Source: Callorhinchus milii (Eukaryota). From it: a stretch of 64,000 nucleotides of DNA. The notes beneath the pieces are model-generated. The model was not told where the DNA came from, ran no database searches, and saw only the letters and a program-made list of their open reading frames with translations. The DNA lies in the NCBI RefSeq assembly GCF_018977255.1, contig NW_024704743.1, forward strand, positions 15,192,001-15,256,000, given 5' to 3'. A program made the translations under genes and the position numbers. The first letter of the stretch is position 1. Every line of letters starts with the position of its first letter. Positions 2,627 to 63,659 of this stretch are shown piece after piece.

Positions 2627-5112
2627 CTTCAACCTCCACTTCACACCCTCCTGCTCCATCTCCTCAGACTTGTCTCTCCTCTCTCTCAACCTCTCCCTCC
2701 ACATCCACTCTGCTACCCACACCCACGGTCGACCTGGTGATCACCTGGGGCCTCAGCGTCTCGGATGTCACCATCACTGACAAGGCCATCTCTGACCACC
2801 ATTTCATCTTCCTCAACTCCCATATCCCTCTCCCCGCTGCCTCCAAACCTACCACCATCTTCTATCGCCCGTGGAAGAAGACTTCCCCGCAATCCCTCTC
2901 TGCTGCCCTGGAGACCTTTGATCTCCTCCCCCTCTGGCTCACCACTCGCAACAATCCACTCACTGCACTCACTCTTCTCCACAGCACCCTCTCCACCACA
3001 CTCGACGTTCTTGCCCCCCTTACCTCCCGAACCGCCTCCTATTCTCAATCTTCACCCTGGTTCACCAGCCACCTCCGCTTACTGCCGAACGCACTTGGCT
3101 CAAATCCGGCCTAACGGTCCACACCCCATCTGGCTGGACCTCATCAAGAACTACCGCTCCGCTCTCGCCTCAGCCAAATCATCCTTCTATTCCAGGTTAA
3201 TCCTGGAGGCGAAAGGCAATCCCAGGCTCCTGTTCTCCACCACTAACCGGCTCCTCCACCCTCCCTGACACGCCTCACAGATACTTTCCTCCGATTCTCA
3301 CTGCGAGAAAATGCTGGACTTCCTCGAGTCCAAAATCGAGGGAATTCGCTCAGCTACCACTGCCCTCCCAACTTCCAATCCCTCCCTGCCCCACCTCACA
3401 CAATTACCCATTCAACAATCACCCGTCCCTCCTTCCAGACCTTTGATCCTGTCACCCCCTTCTCTGTCTTCAACACGGTAACCTCCATGGTCCACCACCT
3501 GCTCCCTCGAACCCATCTCCACCCCTCTCCTTAAATCTCAGCTCCACCTCCTTGCCCCACTACTCGCCGACATCATTAACCTCTCTATGTCATCTGGCAC
3601 TGTTCCTTCCCCCCTCAAAGCAGCCACTATCACCCCCACCTTGAAAAAACCTTCCCTCGACCCATCAAAGCTATCTAGCTACCGACCCATCTCAAATCTC
3701 CCTTTCCTATCCAAGGTCCTTGAGAGAACCGTTGCCTCCCAGCTTTGCTCTTTCCTCTCCTCTCACTTCCTCCATAAACCCCTCCAATCGGGTTTCCGTG
3801 CTGCCCACAGCACCGAAACTGCTCTGGTCAAGGTCACAAACGACATCCTGACTAGGTGTGACCAGGGCTCCCTCTGCCTCCTCTTCCTCCTTGACCTCTC
3901 CGCCGCCTTTGACACCGTGGACCACTCAATCCTCCTCCACCGCCTCTCCTCCCACCTCAACCTTCAAGGTTCTGTCCTTGACTGGTTCAGGTCCTACCTT
4001 TCACACTGCCTCCACTTCGTCACGGCAAACGGCTTCTCCTCCAGCCCCCGCACTGTCTCGTGCAGTGTTCCTCAGGGCTCTGTCCTCGGTCCCCTCCTCT
4101 TTACCCTCTACATGCTCCCCCTTGGTGACATCATCCACAGACATGGGGTAAATTTCCACATGTATGCGGATGACACCCAACTCTATCTCTCTGCCTCCAC
4201 TCTGAACTCCAGAACTACTGAGGTCCTGATCGACTGCTTATCCAACATCAAGTCCTGGATGAGGGCCAACTTTCTCCAACTCAACGCCAGCAAGACCGAG
4301 GCCCTCCTGATTGGCTTGCGCCAGCGCCTTCGCACCTCAGGTGTTGGCAGCATCATCCTCCACGACTGCACACTCAACCTTACTAAGCCAGTCAGGAACC
4401 TGGGTGTCTTGTTTGACCCTGAACTGTGCTTTCTCCCCCACATCCACACCATGACTGGCACTGCCTACCACCACCTCCGCAACATTGCCAGACTCCGCCA
4501 CTGCCTCACCCCTCAGGCTGCCGAAACCCTCACCCACGCATTCGTCACCTCATTGGCCTTCTGAACTTTTTCTTTCACAAGCTGCAGATCATCCAAAACT
4601 CTGCAGCTCGTGTACTCTCACGTACCAGGCTCCGCGACCCCATCACTCCCATCCTCGCCCGACTCCACTGGTTCCCCATCCCCCAGAGGATCGAATTCAG
4701 GATCCTCATCCTCACCTTTAAGGCCATCCATGGCCTTGCCCCCTCCTACTTCTCTGACCTTCTGACTCCCTACCAACCTGCCCACTTCCTCCGTCTAGTG
4801 GGCCTGCTCCATGTCTCCCACCCGACCCGCCCTACCATCGGTGGCCGGGTTTTCAGCCTCTCTGCCCCCACACTCTGGAACTCCATCCCACGGTCCTTTT
4901 GTCTCGCTTCCTCCGTTGCCTCCTTCAAGGCCGTTCTCAAGACCCTTCTCTTCGGCCGTGCCTTTGGTCTCCCTCCCACCTCTCTGCCTTCCCTCACCCC
5001 TACACCACCCCTCCCCCCCATGGTTGGGCCCTGACATCTGACTGTTCAGCGCTTTGGGATGTCCTCACGCCGTGAAAGGCGCTCTATAAATGTAATTTTG
5101 TTGTTGTTGTTG
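2627..5112 (+). mobile_element. 5'-truncated, frameshifted L2-clade LINE (endonuclease C-terminus + reverse transcriptase + 3' UTR)
   Basis: APE motifs DFNLH/SDH; RT motifs [32 protein letters not shown] (ORF 3587..4564); (TTG)n tail; candidate TSD TTTGTGA at 2620-2626 and 5113-5119. Confidence 0.95.
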
Positions 5113-6224: not shown

Positions 6225-6980
6225 ACATTTGAATGTCAGCAAGATTGAGGCTCTCTTGATTGGCTCCCATCAGCATCTCTGAAACTGGCAGCATCAGCAT
6301 CCAAGGATGCACATTCCACCTCACCAAGCTAGTCAGGAACCTTTGTGTCTTGTTATCTTTTCTTCCCCCACATCTGTGCCATGACCCGCTCTACCTTCCA
6401 CCTCCGCAACATCACCCAGCTCCGCTACTGCATAATCTCTTAGGCAACCAAACCTTCATTCACGCATTCATCAGGTCTAAGCTTGACTTCACCAACTCCC
6501 TGCTTGTTGGCCTTTCCAACTCTTTCCTCTACAAGCTGCAGATCATCCAGAACTCTGCAGCTCATGTCCTGTCCTGCACCAGGCTCCGTGACCCCATCAC
6601 ACCCACGCTCGCCCGGCTCCACTGGCTTCCCATCCCTCAGAGGCTTGAGTTCAAAAATCTCAGCCTCACCTTCAAGGCCCTCCATGGCCTTCCCCCCTCC
6701 TATCTCACCAACCTGATAACCCCTTATCAACCTGACCGCTACCTCTGTTTAGCAGGCTCTGGTCTGCTCTATGTCCCCCTCCCGGCCCACCCCACCATCA
6801 ACGGTCGGGCTTTCAGCCCTTGCCTCCTTCAAGGCATGCCTCAAGACCCTTCTCTTCAAACATGCCTTCAGCCATCCTTCTATCCTCTCTGCCCACCACC
6901 CTCCCAGATCCCAACCCCCCACCCCCACTCCGGTCCTAATCCCTGACTGTTCAGAGCCTTGGGACGTCGTCCCGACGTGT
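6225..6980 (+). mobile_element. L2 LINE 3' fragment, decayed
   Basis: ORF 6260..6946 contains LQIIQNSAA...LHWLPI like the 2.5-kb copy. Confidence 0.9.
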
Positions 6981-36550: not shown

Positions 36551-38417
36551 ACTGTATTTATTTACACAGAAGGTAATGAACAGCTGGAATTACCATAGAT
36601 TACCATAGATTCATGGATAGTTGAGGTGAGACAACAGCGCTTATTTTAAGAAAAACTGATGAAGCTTAAAGATGGTAAGATTGTTTTTCTGAAAAAAATG
36701 AGCATTCAAATAGTCCGAATCACCTTATTCGTTCAAACCACTCTTGTGACAGTTGAACTTTTTCAGCACAATGCATACGCAATTTCAATGAGCCAGAAAG
36801 AGGAGCTGTTTATCGATGGTTGAATGTTATATTGAATTTACAGAAACCAATGTGTAGAACTGTGAAGATTTCACTTTAGTATTTGAGCCCTTCAGTGGAG
36901 TAAACAATGCTGTTGTAGAAACATAGTATTTGATGAAATTGCTTGGTGTTGGGGCCAGTTAGCAGACATGATCTTCCAAACTTTTGGACATATTGTTCAT
37001 TGAAACACAAGCTTTTGCTTTTAATTTTATTTCTGGATTTCCATTTAGTCGATGAGATTGCTAATCGCAAGGCCATTGCCAATATATCACGTCTGGATGT
37101 TTGTGCTGATGTGGTGAGGCTGACATTCATATTTTGACCAGTCTAGTGATGTTACAGTTTAGGGGACAAGTGAAAGCAGTATGAACAGTACTGAGCCATT
37201 GCCCCAGATATGTGTTGAGTGTCTATGGTGGCTCAGCCTACCTAGATCAGAGCCATTAAAATGCCTGTTCATCTTCCATGAGAGCAAGAACTTTGGCAAA
37301 GCTTTGTTTCTGTACTGAGGAGAAGGAGGATGCTGACATCACATCAACTGCCTGTGATCAATATTTATCAAGAGTACCAGCAATTTACTGTTTCACAGAC
37401 AGTGGTGTGTGTATAGTAAGGAGTGAAGTTTATTTTCACACATTGCCTGCATAATGCAAAAGGGAGCCATTAGCCAAGATGTTCATAAATTATTATTCAG
37501 CTAAGATGGTATGTCACGGAGTTGCAGTGTTTTGGTTATGCCATTAATTTTATTCATAAACAATTTCATTTCTCTTAGTGGGGAGGAGAAGAGAAGGGGT
37601 TAAATTGTGCAGAGCTGTAAATATCCTTAAGATGAGGTTCAGGGCAGAAATTGGCCATCTATGTCTCTCAGTGGATTGTGTTTTTAATGTTGGAAACGGA
37701 GCTAGATCAAATTAGTTTGAAGATAAAATTATAATTGTTGACTGAATGCTGCATTTTTGTTGCAAATTGCGGATTGAATACCAGTATCATATCATTGGTA
37801 ACATTAATAGTAGCTTGTATTCGCTGCAAAAGATTTTGAAATCTTAAAAATTGTGCAACAAAATATTGTGGTTTTAAACAGATAAGTATTAGTTTTAATC
37901 TTATAATATCCACCTCTGAGAGAAGTTTCATTTTTGCAATCAAAAAACTTCAGGAGAGAGATGTATGAGGAGAAATTCCACCTGTGTCTGGGTTTCCTCT
38001 GTTGACATCATAGTGTTCAGTATTTGGCAAATTCTTAAATACAGCCTTACCTTTCAAGCCTTTTAAGAACTACAGGAAAATAATATCAGAATTAAACAAC
38101 TAAAATCAACTGTTCGTCTCATTCTGAATGATTTGAAATGCTACATAAATAGAGTGATTCTGGATCCAGGTGAAATTTCTCCCTAATGGCTTGCTGGCTA
38201 TGTTGTACGTTCAGATGACAAAAGTAGTGTTAATGCAAACATTCTGCAATTTTATAAACTGTATTTTGTCTTAACTGATTATACCAAATTGATAGGTCCC
38301 TCTCCTGCTCTTGGATCCCCCCCTCCAACCCCCAGCTCCCCAGGCTTAACATTCAAAGTAATGTTTGTCCATAATTTCATGGTAATAGACTAGGTTTGTA
38401 TCATCCTATAATTACAG

Positions 38418-38480
38418 CTTCCAGACATCAATCCAGATCAACCGGTGCCCTCTACACTACAGATACTTACGGGGCTTCAG
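38418..38480 (+). CDS. CLASP2: CLASP2 63-nt exon: ASRHQSRSTGALYTTDTYGAS
   Basis: ttacag|...G|gtgaag, phase 1-1; resembles human ASRHHSRSTGALYAPEVYGAS. Confidence 0.93.
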
Positions 38481-38739
38481 GTGAAGGATGGTATAATGGC
38501 ATGCCAACGTTGTATCGGCAATTTGACCACTTCATCTGTTTTTTTTGTTGGCATGTTCAAAAATTGGTTTCCACAAGAAACATTTTTTGTCATCTTTCAC
38601 TTTGGCCCTCAATTCATTAAAACATACTTTACAGTGTTGTTTAAATGTACTTATTGCTGTAGGAATGTCTATTAATAAATCGCTTATATTAATGAATTAG
38701 ATTTCCTGCATGGAAAACTTGGGGGATGGTGGGAGGAAG

Positions 38740-47692: not shown

Positions 47693-48938
47693 GTAAGTTT
47701 GTTTAGTATTTGTTGGACACCTAACCTTTGCATGACAGAAATTAACCTCCTTCACATTCAAGATCACAATTTTTGTCATCCGAGAAGCTTGTGTGGTTTA
47801 TTCAACAAATGCTGCATAAATGAGAAGGAAATATTTTTAAAACAAGTAGTGTGCTCTGTGATCTACTAATCAATTGACATTGCTTATCAAATGCTTTACC
47901 TACACTGCCTGTATTATGATGTTTGGCGCAACAATAGGCCCTTCAGATTTGGCTCGATTTTAATTTGTGCTTGAGAAATAGACAACTGGATGTATGTCAA
48001 GCATTAATGTCTGCTACTCAGCTGATGCTTGGCTGTGTTGTGAATGCACACTTTCAAACATATGTAGCTCTTATCTTTTTAAAGTATATGAAAGAGTATG
48101 GGGAGGCCATTAAAGGTTAAGGATAGCTCGCAGGAGAGTGGGATAAGATTAGGCGGCTCATGTGGAGAAAATCACCAATGCAGATTGAATGGGCCAAATT
48201 GCCTGCTTCTGTGCTGCAATATTGTATGATTAATTAAGGCAAATCATTAGGTGTTTCAAATTGGCTCACACTATCTAATTTCAATATTGTATTTGCAATT
48301 TGTTTGCAACTGGAACCTCATATAGAGCAGTTTATTTATTTTGGGGGAAATTGGCGATTGTCTGATCCAATGCAGGATACATATTTGGCATTTGCTGATC
48401 TGTATAAATTAATAAGCTCAGAAATTTCTTAGTTTAGTTGGACATTCTTTAACTTTTGTGTTCGGCTAGATGTATATAGAGTTTAAAAAATAAAAAGCCT
48501 GGCAGATGCCAACATTCTTAGTTTGGCCATTTGCTTGATTCCTTTTGAGTCAAAAAAGGTGCTAAAAATGGTTGTAATGTTTTGAGCAAAAATAAAAATG
48601 ATGTGGCTTAAAAGTTAAGTGCATATAATATGGTAACAGATTCAGGCAGCAGTAATACGTTGATCCATTTAGCTTACCCATCCAACTTCCCCAAATATTC
48701 CTTAGACCCATCTATCTCATCATCTAATAATCCTGTAACCCTTTAATTTCCAGAACCCTGTCTAATTCATTGCTGAAACCCTTTATAGATTCTTCTTCCA
48801 CCACCTATACTGGTATTCTTTTCCATACGTGTTCACAAATCTTAATCTCCCTATCTGTTTAATATAAGCTTTGCCTTTTGAATGGAGTGATTCTTAGATC
48901 CTGGGTATTTCCTATTAAAAAATTTGAAAAATAGAACT

Positions 48939-53504: not shown

Positions 53505-53950
53505 TTGCCTCGGTTGGAAGTACTCTTGTCTCTGGGTCAGAAGATAAGTTGATTCCAGCCCAACAAAGCCATTTTGAGCAAACAGTCTAGACTGACGTTC
53601 CAGTGCAATGTTGGGGGGAAGGTATCTTCCTTTGGATGAGACATTAAACAAGTCCCATCTTCCCGTTCAGGTGGATGTTAAAGCAACAACAACATCAATA
53701 AATTATTTAATAAAATATTCAAAAAGAAAAGGGAGTTTCCAATGTCCTGGCCAACAATCCTCCAAAAATGAATTGGCAGATCACCTCCCGAATGTTTGTG
53801 GGACAGTGCTATTTGTATATTGGCTTCAGGGCAAATTTGCTTCCATTCCATTCCACAAATACACAGTTACTACATCTAACTAATTACTATAAAGCTCTTT
53901 GAGACGTTTGATGTAGGCGCTATATACAGTATATCAAATGCAACAATTAT
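53505..53950 (+). mobile_element. SacSINE-like Deu-domain SINE, decayed
   Basis: gtcagaagat..gattccagccc; ggatgagacattaaac; ttcaggtggatgttaaag; tgtttgtgggac; tail ggcgctatat. Confidence 0.7.
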
Positions 53951-54167
53951 TAGTATTATTGTGTTTAGAGCTTCAGAGAAAGTGCACTACAGCCATAATT
54001 TAGGCCTGTGTTTTTTTTTCGATCACTGCAATTTGGAGTATTTACCTGCTGATTAAATAAAAGAATCTGAGTTACACTGAAAATGTTAAGCTTGAATAAT
54101 AGATAATTACAGTTTATGAAGACTTGATGTAACAAAATGTGAGATCATTGTTGAAAAGTGTAAGACT

Positions 54168-54594
54168 TAATAATAATCCTTGCATTTGATATAGTACCGT
54201 ATTACAACAACAACAACAACAAGATTCCATTTATAAAGCGCCTTTCACGTCAGGAGGACGTCCCACATCTTCTAGATGTCTCAAAGCACTTTACAGAATA
54301 TACTTTAAAGTGAATTGACTATATATTTTGTGGGCGAAACGCAGCAGCCAATTGCACACAGCAATGTCCCACAAACAGTGGTGGATTGAGTGACCAAATT
54401 TTTACATTTTTTTTAGGGATTATTACCACTGGAAAAGTGATCCGCCAATCTATTCATAAACGGGTTCCTACTTACTGCTGGTTAAACAGAGGCGTGTAGA
54501 GTGAGGAAACTTGCCCAACGTTTTGCCCTGCCCAGGAATTGAACCCAGGTCCTCTCGCAACCCAGGTGCTCTAACTAATAGGCTACAGCACTCC
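54168..54594 (-). mobile_element. Full-length composite SINE with a nested L2 tail (~54204-54265)
   Basis: Tail, body and head all present on the minus strand. Confidence 0.9.
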
Positions 54595-54659
54595 ACGTGG
54601 CATGTAAAACATACGTACCTCCTGAAGGGAGGATTAACATCATGGTATGAAATGCCAAG

Positions 54660-55019
54660 ATATCCTGTAGTGTAGTGGTTAGTGTACTCACCTCACAAGC
54701 AAGAGGACCTGGGTTTGATTCCTAGGCAGAGGAAAACCTTAAGCAAGTTTCCTTACTCCACACGCTTCTGTTTACCTAGCAGCGAATAGGAACCCAGTTG
54801 TTAATCAATTGGCAAATTGCTTTCCAGGGGTATATTAAAAAAAGTGGTAACTCAATACTAAAAAAATGTGGTAACTCATTCCATGACTGTTTGTGGTACA
54901 TTGCTGTGCGCATTTCGGCCACACAATACACAAGTCAATTCATTTTACAATATGCCTTGTGAAGTGTTTCAGACGTCTCGACGACGTGATAAGGCACTAT
55001 AGTAAATGCAAGGATTATC
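54660..55019 (+). mobile_element. Full-length composite SINE (long subfamily)
   Basis: cctgtagtgtagtggttag head, gggtttgattcc B box, CORE-like, Deu-like, aatgcaaggatt tail. Confidence 0.9.
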
Positions 55020-55177
55020 AATATCCCAGTCCAGTGCCTATACATACGTTGTGATGGTGGTATTTGAACAATTTTGGTTACATATAACCTTGATACATAT
55101 TAACCTCACCTGCAATCTAATTTATTGATAAGTGAAAAGTGCTAATAACCGATTTTGTTCATTGGGAAGTTTGAATA

Positions 55178-55370
55178 CTACAACAACAAATTACATTTAT
55201 GTGGGGCCTTTCACGTCAGGAGGACGGCCCAAGGCGCTGGACAGTCAGGGATCTGTACCCAAGCTGGTGGTTTGGATCAGGAGGAGTGGAGGGCGGGGAG
55301 GATAGGGTTAGTATGGTGACCGAAGGCACAGTCGAAGAGGAGGGTCTTGAGACGGGTCTTGAAGGAGGCA
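55178..55370 (-). mobile_element. L2 3' fragment
   Basis: (CAA)n tail, cctttcacgtcaggaggacgg, gtcgaagaggagggtcttgag. Confidence 0.88.
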
Positions 55371-55394
55371 TTTACAAATACTCTTTATTTACAG

Positions 55395-55538
55395 GTAAAA
55401 GTTGCCATTTTGAAGTACATTGAGACGCTGACTCTACAGATGGATCCTGGAGACTTTGTAAATTCCAGTGAAACACGTTTGGCAGTATCGCGCATCATCA
55501 CTTGGACAACAGAACCAAAAAGTTCAGATGTTAGAAAG
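55395..55538 (+). CDS. CLASP2: CLASP2 exon: VKVAILKYIETLTLQMDPGDFVNSSETRLAVSRIITWTTEPKSSDVRK
   Basis: ttacag|...AAG|gtatgt, 144 nt, phase 0-0. Confidence 0.98.
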
Positions 55539-55824
55539 GTATGTGTTATTAATGACTGCGTATTTATATTAAATGTCATATTGTATTGCTTTGAAACATC
55601 TCGAAGACATAAGGCGCTATATCAAAGGATTATTATTATACAGTAAGGGTAAGTAAGTAGTGCAGCAGTAAAATGTTCTCTTGATGTTTTTTTTAAATCT
55701 TAGATGGAAGTTTCATATTTTGATCTTTTTTCAGCTGAACACAAATATTCTTTTATTACTACTGTGTTTAGAGCTTCAGTCCTTATGTATATGTCGTCTA
55801 AAATTCGATCTAATCAATAATCTA

Positions 55825-56190
55825 CCCCACGCATGCGTAACTCAATTCACCCAATAAGTGACAGGTCAAGACTACACAGTGACGGTCAAAACTACGTTTC
55901 CCAAGATCCAGTGCTTTTCGACTCGTTGCCATATGCAGACTTACTGGCCGCAGTGATGAAGTGAGGCATGCGCACACTTACTGGTTGCATGGAATCGCGG
56001 GAAATGTCATTTTGGCCCGTCGCCTCTTCTGCAGTGCAGTGACGGGTCAAGACTATGTTTCCCACAATTCAATGCATCCGGCTTTTTAAGTGCGCGTGCG
56101 TTAATGGATCAGGACGTCATTTCCCGCGATTCACTGCAGTCACGGAGTGCAGGGATGAGGGAGGACAGGGGAGCGGCCTTACGAGTTAGG
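55825..56190. promoter_or_regulatory. CpG-rich intronic island with four ZNF143/Staf-like motifs, NRF1-like sites and a CCAAT box
   Basis: ACTACGTTTCCCAAGATCCAGTGC (55891-55914); inverted copy 55987-56010; ACTATGTTTCCCACAATTCAATGC (56052-56075); ACGTCATTTCCCGCGATTCACTGC (56114-56137); GCATGCG at 55831 and 55966; CCAAT at 55851. Confidence 0.6.
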
Positions 56191-59100
56191 AGATTAATGG
56201 CTTGTTTTTAGAAAATACAACTAGTACAAAGGAATCTAAAAGTGGATTTGGTTGAAGGTGAATGGGACTCAGGTGCATGTACGACTTAGGCGGTTATATG
56301 ATTCATAAAGATAAGACTTACATAAGTTTTATTTGTTGTATAGACTAGTTTTGATTTGGCGCAGGCTTCTCAGACGTGACCAGCAGAGTCGATAAAACAG
56401 TCACCACAAATTTCTGTGACGTTTCTCTTTATTTCATAGCAGATTTTTTAAAGCAGCTTTCTTTACTTACGGAGAAAAGCTTAATTCTTCTTTTTCATCA
56501 ATTTTACTAAAAATAGGCAACAGTACTGTGATTGTTTCATTCATTTCTNAAAAAAAAATGAAACACTGAAATGGATTAAAGCGAGAAAAAATAACTGCAA
56601 ACTGTAACAATTAAAATGGCATCGGTTTGAATTTATTTATTTTTAGTTCCCAGTTGAACAATGCTTATTGTTGTAGGGGTATAGTTCACATGATGTAAAA
56701 TTAACTGTAGAGTGCCCCTAGCTACAAAAGTGCCAGAAAGCTTAATTGTTAACTTGTGTGGTTTTAATTGAATCATCCCCAGCAGCAGCACACTGCGGAC
56801 TTCAGAGTTTTGAATTATTATTCACGGCTATAACTTGCAATCAGAAACTCTGGTGTGTGTATTCTCTGTGGCTGGAATTGGGCAATAATTACAGCAAAAT
56901 ATTTCAGCACATTCCTTGGTTTGTGTATTACTAAAGTGATTATTCACCATGCTCTGGTCCATTGGAAACCTTTCAGATAAACTTTGTTTGTTGATATACT
57001 TCCAATATGGTGCATAGTTACAGAAGTGGAAAATATTGGAGTAACATTTGCCTTTACAGAAGACACGGCAATTCCTCTGATTAAAGATGTGAACATTGAG
57101 TTTTTAAAGGCTTTCTATTATCTTTGTTTTGTAGATTCAAGTAATTACAAATGATTACATTTTCTGTAAGTTGCAAGCATGATATTAAAGTCTCATAATT
57201 ACTATTCTGATACATATTACCTTTGTGGATGACATAAACCTATCCTTCAAAAAAGTGAACTAGACAAAAGAAGTTACAACCTTGAATTGTTAGGCAGCAA
57301 TTATTCTTATTAACTTTGGTGAAAAAAAACAGTTTCTCTTTTCACTGATCATGTGAGAAGTGAACTCCTACAGGGAGTTTGAAAGCTGACTACTCACAAC
57401 AGACACCCACTCATACAGAAAGCAATGTCATGCTCCTTGCCCAATCATGGAAACGTTGGGAGTATCTGTAGCTAGCTGAGCTTATACCTGAATAATAGAA
57501 GCTGAGATGCAGAACTTGGTCTGAATATCAGGCAATGCCAATCTTGATGCATTTTCCTCCTGTACTTGTAAAAGTCAATGGCCTGGATTCCCAAACCCAG
57601 TATAAAGTAGCTAGATTTGCAGGTAGCACACACTGTGCGGGTGGATCTGTGGAATCAGAACAGGCAGCAAAGGTTTTACAAAGATCTTGATAGGGCAAAT
57701 GAAATTCATTACAGATAAATGTAAGGTACTGCAATAGGAAATAAGAATGGGAAGCACATTTACCTCTAAATTACTCCTAACTTCCAGATACTCTGCTCTT
57801 GGTGCTTTTCTTCCTCTTTGTATGCTGATCTTGTTTATATTAAGACATTGGACTATCTTCTATTGATTTCTCTGAATGAAAGAAGTAGGTTTGAATACAT
57901 TGGGAGGTACTCCAAAATGTTACCTTGAGCTTAAAAGTAAAGTCAATGCAGATTGATTTTATGGAGCAGCTTTAGCAGGAATATTTACATCTGCTGCACT
58001 CAGTTTACCAGTCAGTCAATGCACAAAGTTGTGAAAGGAATGCTATCATGGACATTGCCCTTTCATAACTAGAAACCAGACTTTTAATAAGCTTTGGGAA
58101 TTTATTTTGAAAAATCATATTACATCGGAAGACAGAAATCTCAATCTATTGGTAAACTGCAAAAATCATTGTCACAGGATGTTGATCTGTACAAATAAGC
58201 TTCAGCACCACCCATAAGCCTTCATCTAATATCTCAGTACAAAAAAAGTTCTCTGTACAGATATGCACAGAAGCTTAACTCTGAAAAGATTCCCTTTCTA
58301 AATTCTATCAAATTTTAGATATTTATTTCTTGCTAATCATTATCAGGAATCTTGCTGTATTATCTAGGCCTCCATTCTGCCCCTGATATGATTAGCAGAG
58401 TGAATACCAGGCCTATGGATCTCAGAATCACAGATATGCCATTGCTGTTGAACAAATTGAGTTTTAAATGCCCCCTTCTGGCAATGGTCTTTAGTCTTAT
58501 CAAAACACAGAAGCAAAATGACACAGTGTGGCAGCGTGAAGAACTGATTAATTTATTGATGGATAGATAGATATACTGTGCAGGATTCAAAGCTACAGTA
58601 AAGAAATGAAGAACTGTTGTATAGTTGTTGATATAGATAAGCCAAAATTCACTAGTCATTGCTGTTATTTTCGAGCTTTTGACTCTGCAGAACCTGACAG
58701 CCTAATGTAGCTCAACCTTTTCTGGTTAGCCACCAGGAGAGTGATTTTGTTTCCCTCTAGAGCTGTGTTTTAGTATTTCAGTAATTCTGGTTGGCATAGA
58801 TTTTTTTGCAACCAGCATTTCCAGATATCATATTAATCTTCCTGGCAGCATATATGTAGCCACTTCACTATTGTAATCCCTTTCTTTATTTTGTGGTCTG
58901 ATGTTAGTTGAGACCCGCATTAAGTTAATCAGCTAAGTGTTTTGAAGGTTCATTCTTGACTTTGAACTCCACTGCCATCTGGTTTCATTGAAGTTTCTTC
59001 CAGTGACAGCAAAGTAGTGCTTGTGCGTAATATCAGACTATTCTAGGTTTGCCCTAGTTCCAGCCAATTATATTGAATAGGGGTAATGGAGGCCAGTAAT

Positions 59101-59372
59101 GTTATTTTAATTAGAAGATAGATGAATTATGGTAACATCACCAATTAAAGAATATTAATGAGTCTAATTTGTAATATTTCTTAAACGGATTATTTAATAA
59201 TGAATCAAAATCATGAGAATAGGAACTCTTGTATGACCTGCTGACCTATGGGAACTCGGTTTCGATAACAACTATTTTCTGAGTGAAGTTCCCCAGGGTC
59301 GATCGGTTGGCATTCATTATTAAAGAACCCCATTAAAAAGTAATGCAAATTATACCATAGTATTCTATTAAA

Positions 59373-59570
59373 CAGGGTGATCCAACCTTTTGTCTGCTGA
59401 GGGCCATATGCCCTATTTGAGAAACGTCTGCGGCTTCAAAAGTAATATTTTTGTGATTCCCTTCCAGAAACATAACAATTACAGGTTATGGAGGGAGCGG
59501 GTGGGCCAGATGAAATGGAGGGAGGGGGGACGGGATGTAACTGGCCGGCCCGCGAACTGCCTTAGACCAA
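59373..59570. mobile_element. hAT (Charlie/MER58-like) non-autonomous remnant
   Basis: Starts CAGGGTGATCCAACCTTTT...gagggccata; internal gggccagatgaaa...tggccggcccg. Confidence 0.55.
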
Positions 59571-59655
59571 AAGACATTTTGAGTGCAAATACTATCGAAT
59601 GCTTCTAGAAAGAAAACTAGAAATCTTAATATTGTTTTGACCACTTTTCTTTCAG

Positions 59656-59799
59656 GCAGCTCAAATAGTGTTGATATCTCTGTTTCAACTCAACACCCCA
59701 GAATTCAGCATGTTACTTGGAGCTTTGCCCAAAACATTCCAGGATGGAGCCACCAAACTACTTCAAAACCATCTCCGTAATTCAGGCAGCACTAGCCAG
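59656..59799 (+). CDS. CLASP2: CLASP2 exon, end of TOG3: AAQIVLISLFQLNTPEFSMLLGALPKTFQDGATKLLQNHLRNSGSTSQ
   Basis: tttcag|...CAG|gtaaat, 144 nt, phase 0-0. Confidence 0.98.
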
Positions 59800-59816
59800 G
59801 TAAATGCCCTACATTT

Positions 59817-63028: not shown

Positions 63029-63109
63029 AAGTAATATTATTATTTTTGAAGGCTGTAGTTGCAAGATCAAATGGATTATTTAAAAGGGATATGCATACAC
63101 ACATATATA

Positions 63110-63475
63110 CAGTGGAAAACTATTAAGCCAGACACATCGGGCCCGGCTGGATTGTCCGGCTTAAACGGCGTCCGAGGTTAACCAAAGTCCCATTACCCCT
63201 TCTCGCCCAGCAAGGAGGCAGTGGCCCGTCATCCATCCCATTGCCGTCTCCATTTAACGGGAAAGGGACCAATTAGCAGCGGCTTCAAAGTTATTGACGG
63301 CCTGAAGCCGCTTGTGAATGTTCGGACTCCACCCATTCACAAGAGGCTCGGCTGTCAATCAATCACAAGTTAACGCCTTCCATTCCCTCTCTTGTTTCTT
63401 CCCCGTTCCTGCGACCCCCCCCCTCACTAACCAACAGCTCAACTCCAGCCGCTTGTGAATGGCTGGAGTCCACTG
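63110..63475. mobile_element. Tc1/mariner-like MITE with internal palindromes
   Basis: TA+CAGTGGA at left, TCCACTG at right; GCCGCTTGTGAATG motif in both orientations. Confidence 0.5.
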
Positions 63476-63659
63476 TCTAATCAATCGCAATTTGACTCCT
63501 CCAAACTCCATTCTGGAGCCACTCATGGCTGAATGTAGCTGCTCCGAAGACCCAAATGAGTACTTTCAGCAGTGACCAGCGTGGCATTTTGTCCAAATTA
63601 ATTGGATTGTTGTAAGAATTAATCGGCATACTTAAAACTGGTAAGAATAGAAATAAATA

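Follow-up and report, generated by a model that had tools for sequence, protein, structure and literature searches.

The stretch of DNA analysed here (64,000 nucleotides of Callorhinchus milii; hereafter the window) carries CLASP2 on its + strand. A tblastn search with C. milii CLASP2 gave 21 exon matches, and by sequence comparison the exon at 59656–59799 is 100% identical to the CLASP2 records of this species, which confirms the host gene named in the original prediction. The feature under study is a CpG-rich patch (55825–56190) that had been read as a promoter-like island deep in a CLASP2 intron. It lies within the 4117-nt intron 55539–59655, but 55825 is only 287 bp past the donor of exon 55395–55538, and the feature extends beyond the patch, to 56348. 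Four of the 12 same-species runs listed were aligned to 55375–59810 at 80% likeness. The spliced joint 55538/59656 (GT..AG) is present in contigs of runs X1, X6 and X8; as these contigs bridge the two exons directly, the normal CLASP2 splice is used. The features of the locus are as follows.

55395..55538, +, CLASP2 coding exon (host gene, outside the element), from tblastn with C. milii CLASP2
55780..56348, +, whole repeat copy, probably a non-autonomous Helitron, from X2 depth and joints; 5′ limit uncertain, within 55698–55799
55799..55860, +, left piece common to other copies, with an NRF1-like site (55829–55838) and CCAAT; joints leave it at 55825, 55846, 55849 and 55860
55857..55876, +, partial unit consisting of the 5′ half; over 18 nt it is 94% identical to 56038–56055; TRF period 20
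55877..55915, +, unit 1, SBS2 type by motif match: M4 at 55891–55903 and 18-bp Staf site at 55898–55915
55964..55973, no strand, NRF1-like site, 8/10 by consensus match
55986..56003, −, unit 2, inverted 18-bp Staf-type site without intact ACTAYR, from motif match and inverted self-alignment
56038..56076, +, unit 3, SBS2 type by motif match: M4 at 56052–56064 and Staf site at 56059–56076
56092..56101, no strand, NRF1-like site; 24 X2 contigs have A at 56096, a closer NRF1 match
56121..56138, +, unit 4, 18-bp Staf-type site without intact ACTAYR, by motif match
56259..56348, +, right piece, more widely shared than the rest of the family; before 56259, related loose ends occur in 100 X2 contigs
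56311..56332, +, 3′ hairpin with a 10-bp stem and one G.T pair; fold weak (−2.7 kcal/mol, z −0.4)
56345..56349, +, CTAG then T, 12 nt past the hairpin: candidate Helitron 3′ end and target T
59656..59799, +, CLASP2 exon 3′ of the element (host gene) with an in-frame ATG at 59710, from sequence identity and tblastn

Promoter-type motifs and CpG content

Four 18-mers in the patch fit the Staf/ZNF143 rule given in passages of PMC3082894 (CCCR at positions 3–6, C at 12): 55898–55915, 56059–56076 and 56121–56138 on the + strand and 55986–56003 on the − strand. At least four such sites arose in 144 of 5000 local dinucleotide shuffles. The M4 motif ACTAYRNNNCCCR, as defined in passages of PMC5006282, occurs exactly at 55891 and 56052, its only two positions in the 64 kb; two M4 motifs were reached by 12 of 100 whole-window shuffles and by 0 of 5000 local ones. 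Passages of PMC3627581 describe the SBS2-type site as ACTACAN plus an 18-bp Staf site. Scored as ACTAYRN immediately 5′ of an 18-bp site with CCCR at 3–6 and C at 12, such a site (a predicted ZNF143/THAP11 site) is found in two of the four units, the other two fitting the 18-bp rule only. GCATGCG has three matches, a number equalled in 3 of 5000 local shuffles, and NRF1-like 8/10 matches to GCGCATGCGC, none perfect, lie at 55829, 55964 and 56092. GCGCATGCGC is the NRF1 consensus given in the earlier sequence reading.

The motif identifications made earlier (ZNF143/THAP11, NRF1-type and the GCATGCG sites) therefore hold. The CCAAT noted with them is indeed present, but at chance level (1 observed, 1.0 expected). 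Similarly, the description of four ~40-bp units, one of them inverted, agrees with the four Staf sites and the orientation of the second; the full consensus with ACTAYR, however, is confined to units 1 and 3, in units 2 and 4 the Staf half survives and the 5′ part has decayed, and 55857–55876 is a fifth, partial unit. Because the units are internal duplicates (68–81% identical to each other), the motif counts are not independent evidence.

The earlier hand count of about 24 CpGs in ~390 bp was exact: 55801–56190 contains 24 CpG, more than any other 390 bp of the window, at GC 0.50 and CpG o/e 0.98. The surroundings were less CpG-poor than supposed, as five further 390-bp windows reach 18–23 CpG; three of these match other repeats inside the window, and one falls in an L2-type LINE-like stretch, read by eye.

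Other CpG-rich DNA in the window was also noted. A long L2-type LINE copy with endonuclease and RT-like stretches, recognised by eye, occupies 2640–5100 and explains several of the other CpG peaks. The first 50 residues of one database protein, P0005, match repeat copies at 4588–4731 and 6542–6685 (minus strand), so this gene model probably starts in LINE sequence. The same protein matches a small CLASP2 exon at 38417–38482 that neither P0007 nor P0002 matches, i.e. an alternative exon. The fifth of the 390-bp windows, a CpG-rich patch at 63101–63490 (20 CpG, o/e 0.77), is unassigned; it has no second copy in the window and is probably another DNA-transposon end.

Copy number and family structure

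The kind of run X2 is unrecorded; we read it as genomic DNA because it covers the intron evenly, has no spliced joint and holds 886 million letters. Its own-locus contigs tile 55611–57037, so the locus is real and not an assembly artefact. Over unique intron, X2 forms a single tiling path at depth 5.6–10.3, two small repeat spots aside. Summed depth is 158–457 over 55671–56262 (20–59x the unique-intron median) and 1254 in 56263–56410 (161x), returning to the single level from 56411. As summed contig depth is no copy number, the argument rests on contig counts and joints. Among the 40 variants listed of 147, the X2 contigs sharing one variant number 37 with G at 55829, 24 at 56096, 24 at 56134 and 112 at 56293; in the right piece these 112 carry A, and 95 carry C at 56299. 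Among the 15 joints listed of 86, 13 link element pieces in other arrangements (e.g. 55846>56035, 55860>56259, 56076>56259 and 56139>56259). Other contigs connect the same left and right pieces across differing unit numbers, and since common flanks are not expected of motifs shared by unrelated promoters, this points to a single family in which the ends are constant and the core varies.

Judged from these contigs, the core probably lies in tens of loci and the right end in more, and the patch is almost certainly a copy of an interspersed repeat. A transposon carrying promoter-type sites was one of the readings originally offered, together with the remark that a high copy number would reclassify the island as such, and a high copy number is what we found: dozens of other contigs on the core and more than 100 on the right end, versus one in the flanking intron. 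That transposon was described as young, which does not look right for a copy that has diverged from its sisters at numerous positions and is losing CpGs. Within the element, the longest stop-free frame is 83 aa, with no start required. No second full copy lies within the 64-kb window; at 48056–48089, 34 nt that are 79% identical to the right end may be a fragment or chance. The unit pattern had 0 matches in viral and metagenome contigs, and the right-end pattern 0 in metagenomes; two viral matches to the latter (19 nt, without flanking similarity) were taken as chance.

A single N at 56549, at the beginning of an A run, is crossed by an X2 contig with one gap and is thus a small ambiguity rather than a scaffold gap. 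In the RNA-like run X8, a contig of another family copy with the joint 55825>56035 has depth 227 versus 2.8 for the CLASP2 junction; some family member may therefore sit in an abundant transcript, contig depth being a poor measure of this.

Class of the repeat

The copy is most likely ~570–650 bp long, in sense orientation and 240–290 bp into the CLASP2 intron. Joints place the shared left piece at or before 55799; candidate 5′ ends are TC after A at 55698, 55724, 55809, 55814 and 55821 and TC after G at 55780, none of them tied to a family boundary. Separately, a 27-nt pair (53950–53976 and 55753–55779, 89% identical) has its second member ending at 55779, beside one of these candidates.

The most likely class is a non-autonomous canonical Helitron (HLE1), which we hold to be moderately probable overall; with repeat status taken as given, Helitron class gains a little further. 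It is the best guess, rather than a demonstrated membership. Passages of PMC11417382, PMC4067079 and PMC4778049 give the HLE1 signature as a 5′ TC, a short 3′ hairpin followed by CTRR, insertion between A and T and no target duplication. The right end of the element resembles this: CTAG followed by T falls inside the last multi-copy bin, and the combination of hairpin, 12-nt spacer, CTAG and T occurs at 1 of 65 CTAGT sites in the window, by a test designed after the hairpin had been noticed. The T at 56349 follows CTAG and no target-site duplication was found around the copy, while a matching 5′ A depends on the uncertain 5′ end. The hairpin does not stand out from shuffled sequence, an equally good fold arising in 60 of 200 shuffles, and Helitron end signals yield many false positives according to passages of PMC11417382. 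Beyond 56319, three X8 contigs carry a form of this hairpin arm that is richer in GC. Their loose-end consensus (agreement 0.8) has CTAA and then G at its end in place of CTAG and T, and a TA-flanked TIR end is a second possible reading of it.

A Helitron of this class, Helitron-1_CM (HLE1), is recorded for C. milii in the supplement of PMC11417382, in which HLE1 is the sole kind in four of eight chondrichthyan genomes among the rows listed; the supplements of PMC4067079 hold no shark entry. Passages of PMC4350176 and PMC6817897 describe the C. milii genome as poor in DNA transposons, with DNA transposons at 0.14% of the genome and Helitrons at 0.007% in the PMC6817897 supplement. No paper on this repeat family was found among those listed; Repbase and Dfam lay outside the search, so the family may already have a name and an entry there.

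The same repeat could instead be a cut-and-paste non-autonomous element with decayed ends, either of Tc1/mariner type with a TA duplication or of hAT type with subterminal repeats, which we consider unlikely. hAT elements often carry variable arrays of subterminal repeats, which the variable unit array here resembles. Read in this way, the X8 loose-end consensus past 56319 ends in CTG with TA after it, and there is a matching 8-mer at 55666–55673; 12/16 inverted matches pair 55671 with 56319 and 55704 with 56323. However, 55666 is not preceded by TA, and the best left–right inverted alignment scores 25, below the mean of 26 for shuffled sequence, a score reached by 295 of 500 shuffles. In the one copy examined, whose ends decay could hide, there is no clean pair of TIR and target-site duplication, two candidates with 8–9-bp duplications having only 8–9/16 TIR matches. 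A Crypton was considered as well; animal Cryptons are described without terminal repeats in passages of PMC3212892. Rather less probable still is a Helentron-type non-autonomous element (HINE/HLE2), with subTIRs, central tandem repeats, a 3′ palindrome and a T-rich target. Passages of PMC4067079 and PMC7492417 describe HINEs as having 11–15-bp subTIRs that lie 38–60 bp short of the 3′ end, and central repeats that vary. An inverted pair at 55780–55790 and 56301–56311 (9/11) sits just 5′ of the hairpin, 37 bp from the 3′ end, but a 9/11 pair is reached by 108 of 200 shuffles; moreover, CTAG followed by T is the HLE1 mark, and HLE1 alone is given for chondrichthyans among the rows listed.

If the element is an HLE1 Helitron, an autonomous RepHel transposase would have copied it in trans by a rolling-circle mechanism, and the hairpin and CTAG would have served as its 3′ stop signal. 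As for the motif cassette, it could equally be the element's own promoter or a once-captured host promoter, and the ~40-bp units would have multiplied inside the family. Inserted in sense orientation near an exon, the element would have brought its CpG richness with it, and silencing and decay of the CpG-rich cassette would have followed.

Like non-autonomous HLE1 Helitrons, the element is a short non-coding interspersed repeat with a 3′ hairpin, CTAG and a flanking T, showed no TIR or target-site duplication, and has a 3′ end more widely shared than its interior. Unlike them, its 5′ TC after A was not located, and the hairpin ends 16 nt from the terminus compared with ~11 nt in the canonical description. 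Helitron-1_CM in Repbase is a possible partner, compared by name only. HINE/DINE-1 elements and the oyster Cg_HINE, in passages of PMC4067079 and PMC7492417, share constant ends, a variable number of central repeats and a 3′ palindrome, but differ in that the patch has a subTIR pair at chance, no microsatellite and an end of CTAG followed by T.

Activity of this copy and possible promoter dispersal

Eleven element sites have at least eight X2 contigs among the 40 variants listed of 147. At four of them (55829, 56102, 56103 and 56299) the window has the CpG-decayed letter, and at one (56096) the reverse holds. At 55927 the own-locus X2 contig reads CG versus TG in the window, compared by eye. 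These CpG losses fit germline methylation and slow decay, and passages of PMC5437953, which cover LINEs and SINEs and not this family, report elephant-shark LINEs and SINEs to be hypermethylated. On sequence grounds this copy is probably methylated and silent. A CpG o/e of 0.97 in the core versus 0.57 in the right arm, with 24 CpG remaining, would also fit partial protection. We think it very probable that this copy is not a working promoter; the patch is probably commonplace debris left by mobile DNA rather than a concealed gene start, and a working internal CLASP2 promoter is unlikely.

Two accounts would nevertheless give the patch a function. A unique host element, be it an internal CpG-island CLASP2 promoter or the promoter of an snRNA- or scaRNA-type gene, would explain motif content that is typical of such promoters in passages of PMC3082894 and PMC3627581, but is highly improbable, given that the left piece, the units and the right piece recur, rearranged, in many other contigs. 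The Infernal/Rfam check proposed for the flanks gave no family at gathering score in 54500–57500 (best E 1.3, a SINE tRNA head), the two SINE-type tRNA heads of the window lying elsewhere than the island. Human snRNA-type promoters have one SBS1 with octamer and PSE rather than SBS2 arrays (passages of PMC3627581), and the patch, an SBS2 array with no match to TATA, octamer or PSE-like patterns, is unlike these. The suggested promoter of an ncRNA thus finds no support, and neither does the unannotated internal promoter, for which multi-copy status was found instead. A transposon-derived copy that has been co-opted, kept open by ZNF143/THAP11 and NRF1 and giving either antisense RNA or sense transcripts spliced from a donor at 56258 to exon 59656 (a 435-aa C-terminal CLASP2), is less far-fetched, though still a poor prospect. 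It could draw on two intact M4 and Staf sites, a core o/e of 0.97, a plausible donor at 56258 and the in-frame ATG at 59710. Passages of PMC3082894 report that a single Staf site suffices for bidirectional promoter activity in HeLa reporters, and the bat HelibatN3 drives transcripts in this way with a captured promoter (passages of PMC4778049). Against co-option, CpG-type losses relative to sister copies extend into the core, and the direct bridging of 55538 to 59656 is seen in contigs of three runs. None of the 15 joints listed of 86 runs from the element to exon 59656, and the pieces listed include no RNA contig of this locus over the core, contigs being unable to show absence. No RNA run is listed for 55700–56548, which speaks neither for nor against expression. 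The 0.20 share of run X1 corresponds to an intron contig at 56394–56576, outside the element.

The C-terminal CLASP2 proposed earlier does have an in-frame ATG in exon 59656: it is Met1068 of 1502, with a predicted product of 435 aa. This start cuts inside the domain matched by PDB 3woz (859–1091), which we take to be TOG3, and the product keeps the C-terminal HEAT domain (1259–1491) matched by PDB 8whh (1259–1489), presumably CLIP-ID. Since it would be without the three N-terminal TOG-type domains but with the C-terminal HEAT domain, "TOG-less" is only roughly right, and the spliced transcript itself gained no support. Among 120 short CLASP proteins, three begin at Met1068; two come from a 43-kb contig and one is a run contig, and they look like fragments.

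That a chimaera Helitron family has spread a ZNF143/THAP11 and NRF1 promoter cassette to tens of loci, with some copies unmethylated and serving as new promoters (here possibly for a C-terminal CLASP2 keeping only the CLIP/LL5-binding end), is an improbable proposal. An element with SBS2 arrays could seed promoters. If true, this would be the cartilaginous-fish counterpart of the bat HelibatN3 and would add to the mammalian MLT1J another, independent transposon origin of SBS2 sites; were any copy active, Helitron promoter dispersal, known from bats, would extend to cartilaginous fish. As in HelibatN3 and the promoter-carrying bat Helitrons (passages of PMC4778049 and PMC4224331), a Helitron-like element here sits in an intron in sense orientation, carries sequence of housekeeping-promoter type and offers a possible splice donor. 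Unlike those, its cassette is an array of an internally duplicated ~40-bp unit and not a recognisable gene 5′ end, it comes without an identified donor host gene, and it is known from sequence alone. MLT1J LTRs, in passages of PMC3627581, are likewise a transposon family with SBS2 sites and are bound by ZNF143, but they are LTRs of a mammalian retroelement with ChIP evidence, whereas the patch is a cartilaginous-fish DNA-type repeat with predicted sites. The SBS-driven bidirectional CpG-island promoters in passages of PMC3082894 share the Staf site, the ACTAYR extension and NRF1-like motifs with the patch, which differs in being ~390 bp of 50% GC, multi-copy, with CpG decay and without a gene pair around it. 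The main value of the analysis is one of correction: in this genome, what passes convincingly for a ZNF143/NRF1 "CpG island" may turn out to be a repeat, and the copy number of a motif cluster should be checked before anything else. The family itself is of modest interest, in a genome where DNA transposons are few.

Other repeats lie in and near the same intron. Two adjacent tRNA-headed SINE copies in opposite orientation (68% over ~500 bp) occupy 54264–55024. Within the intron, a small multi-copy stretch at 57595–57742 (X2 depth 91) reads like a CR1 reverse-transcriptase remnant. A very high-copy short repeat at 59371–59530, 5′ of exon 59656, has an X2 summed depth of ~7900 and more than 100 contigs per variant; by eye it resembles a hAT/Charlie-type MITE fragment.
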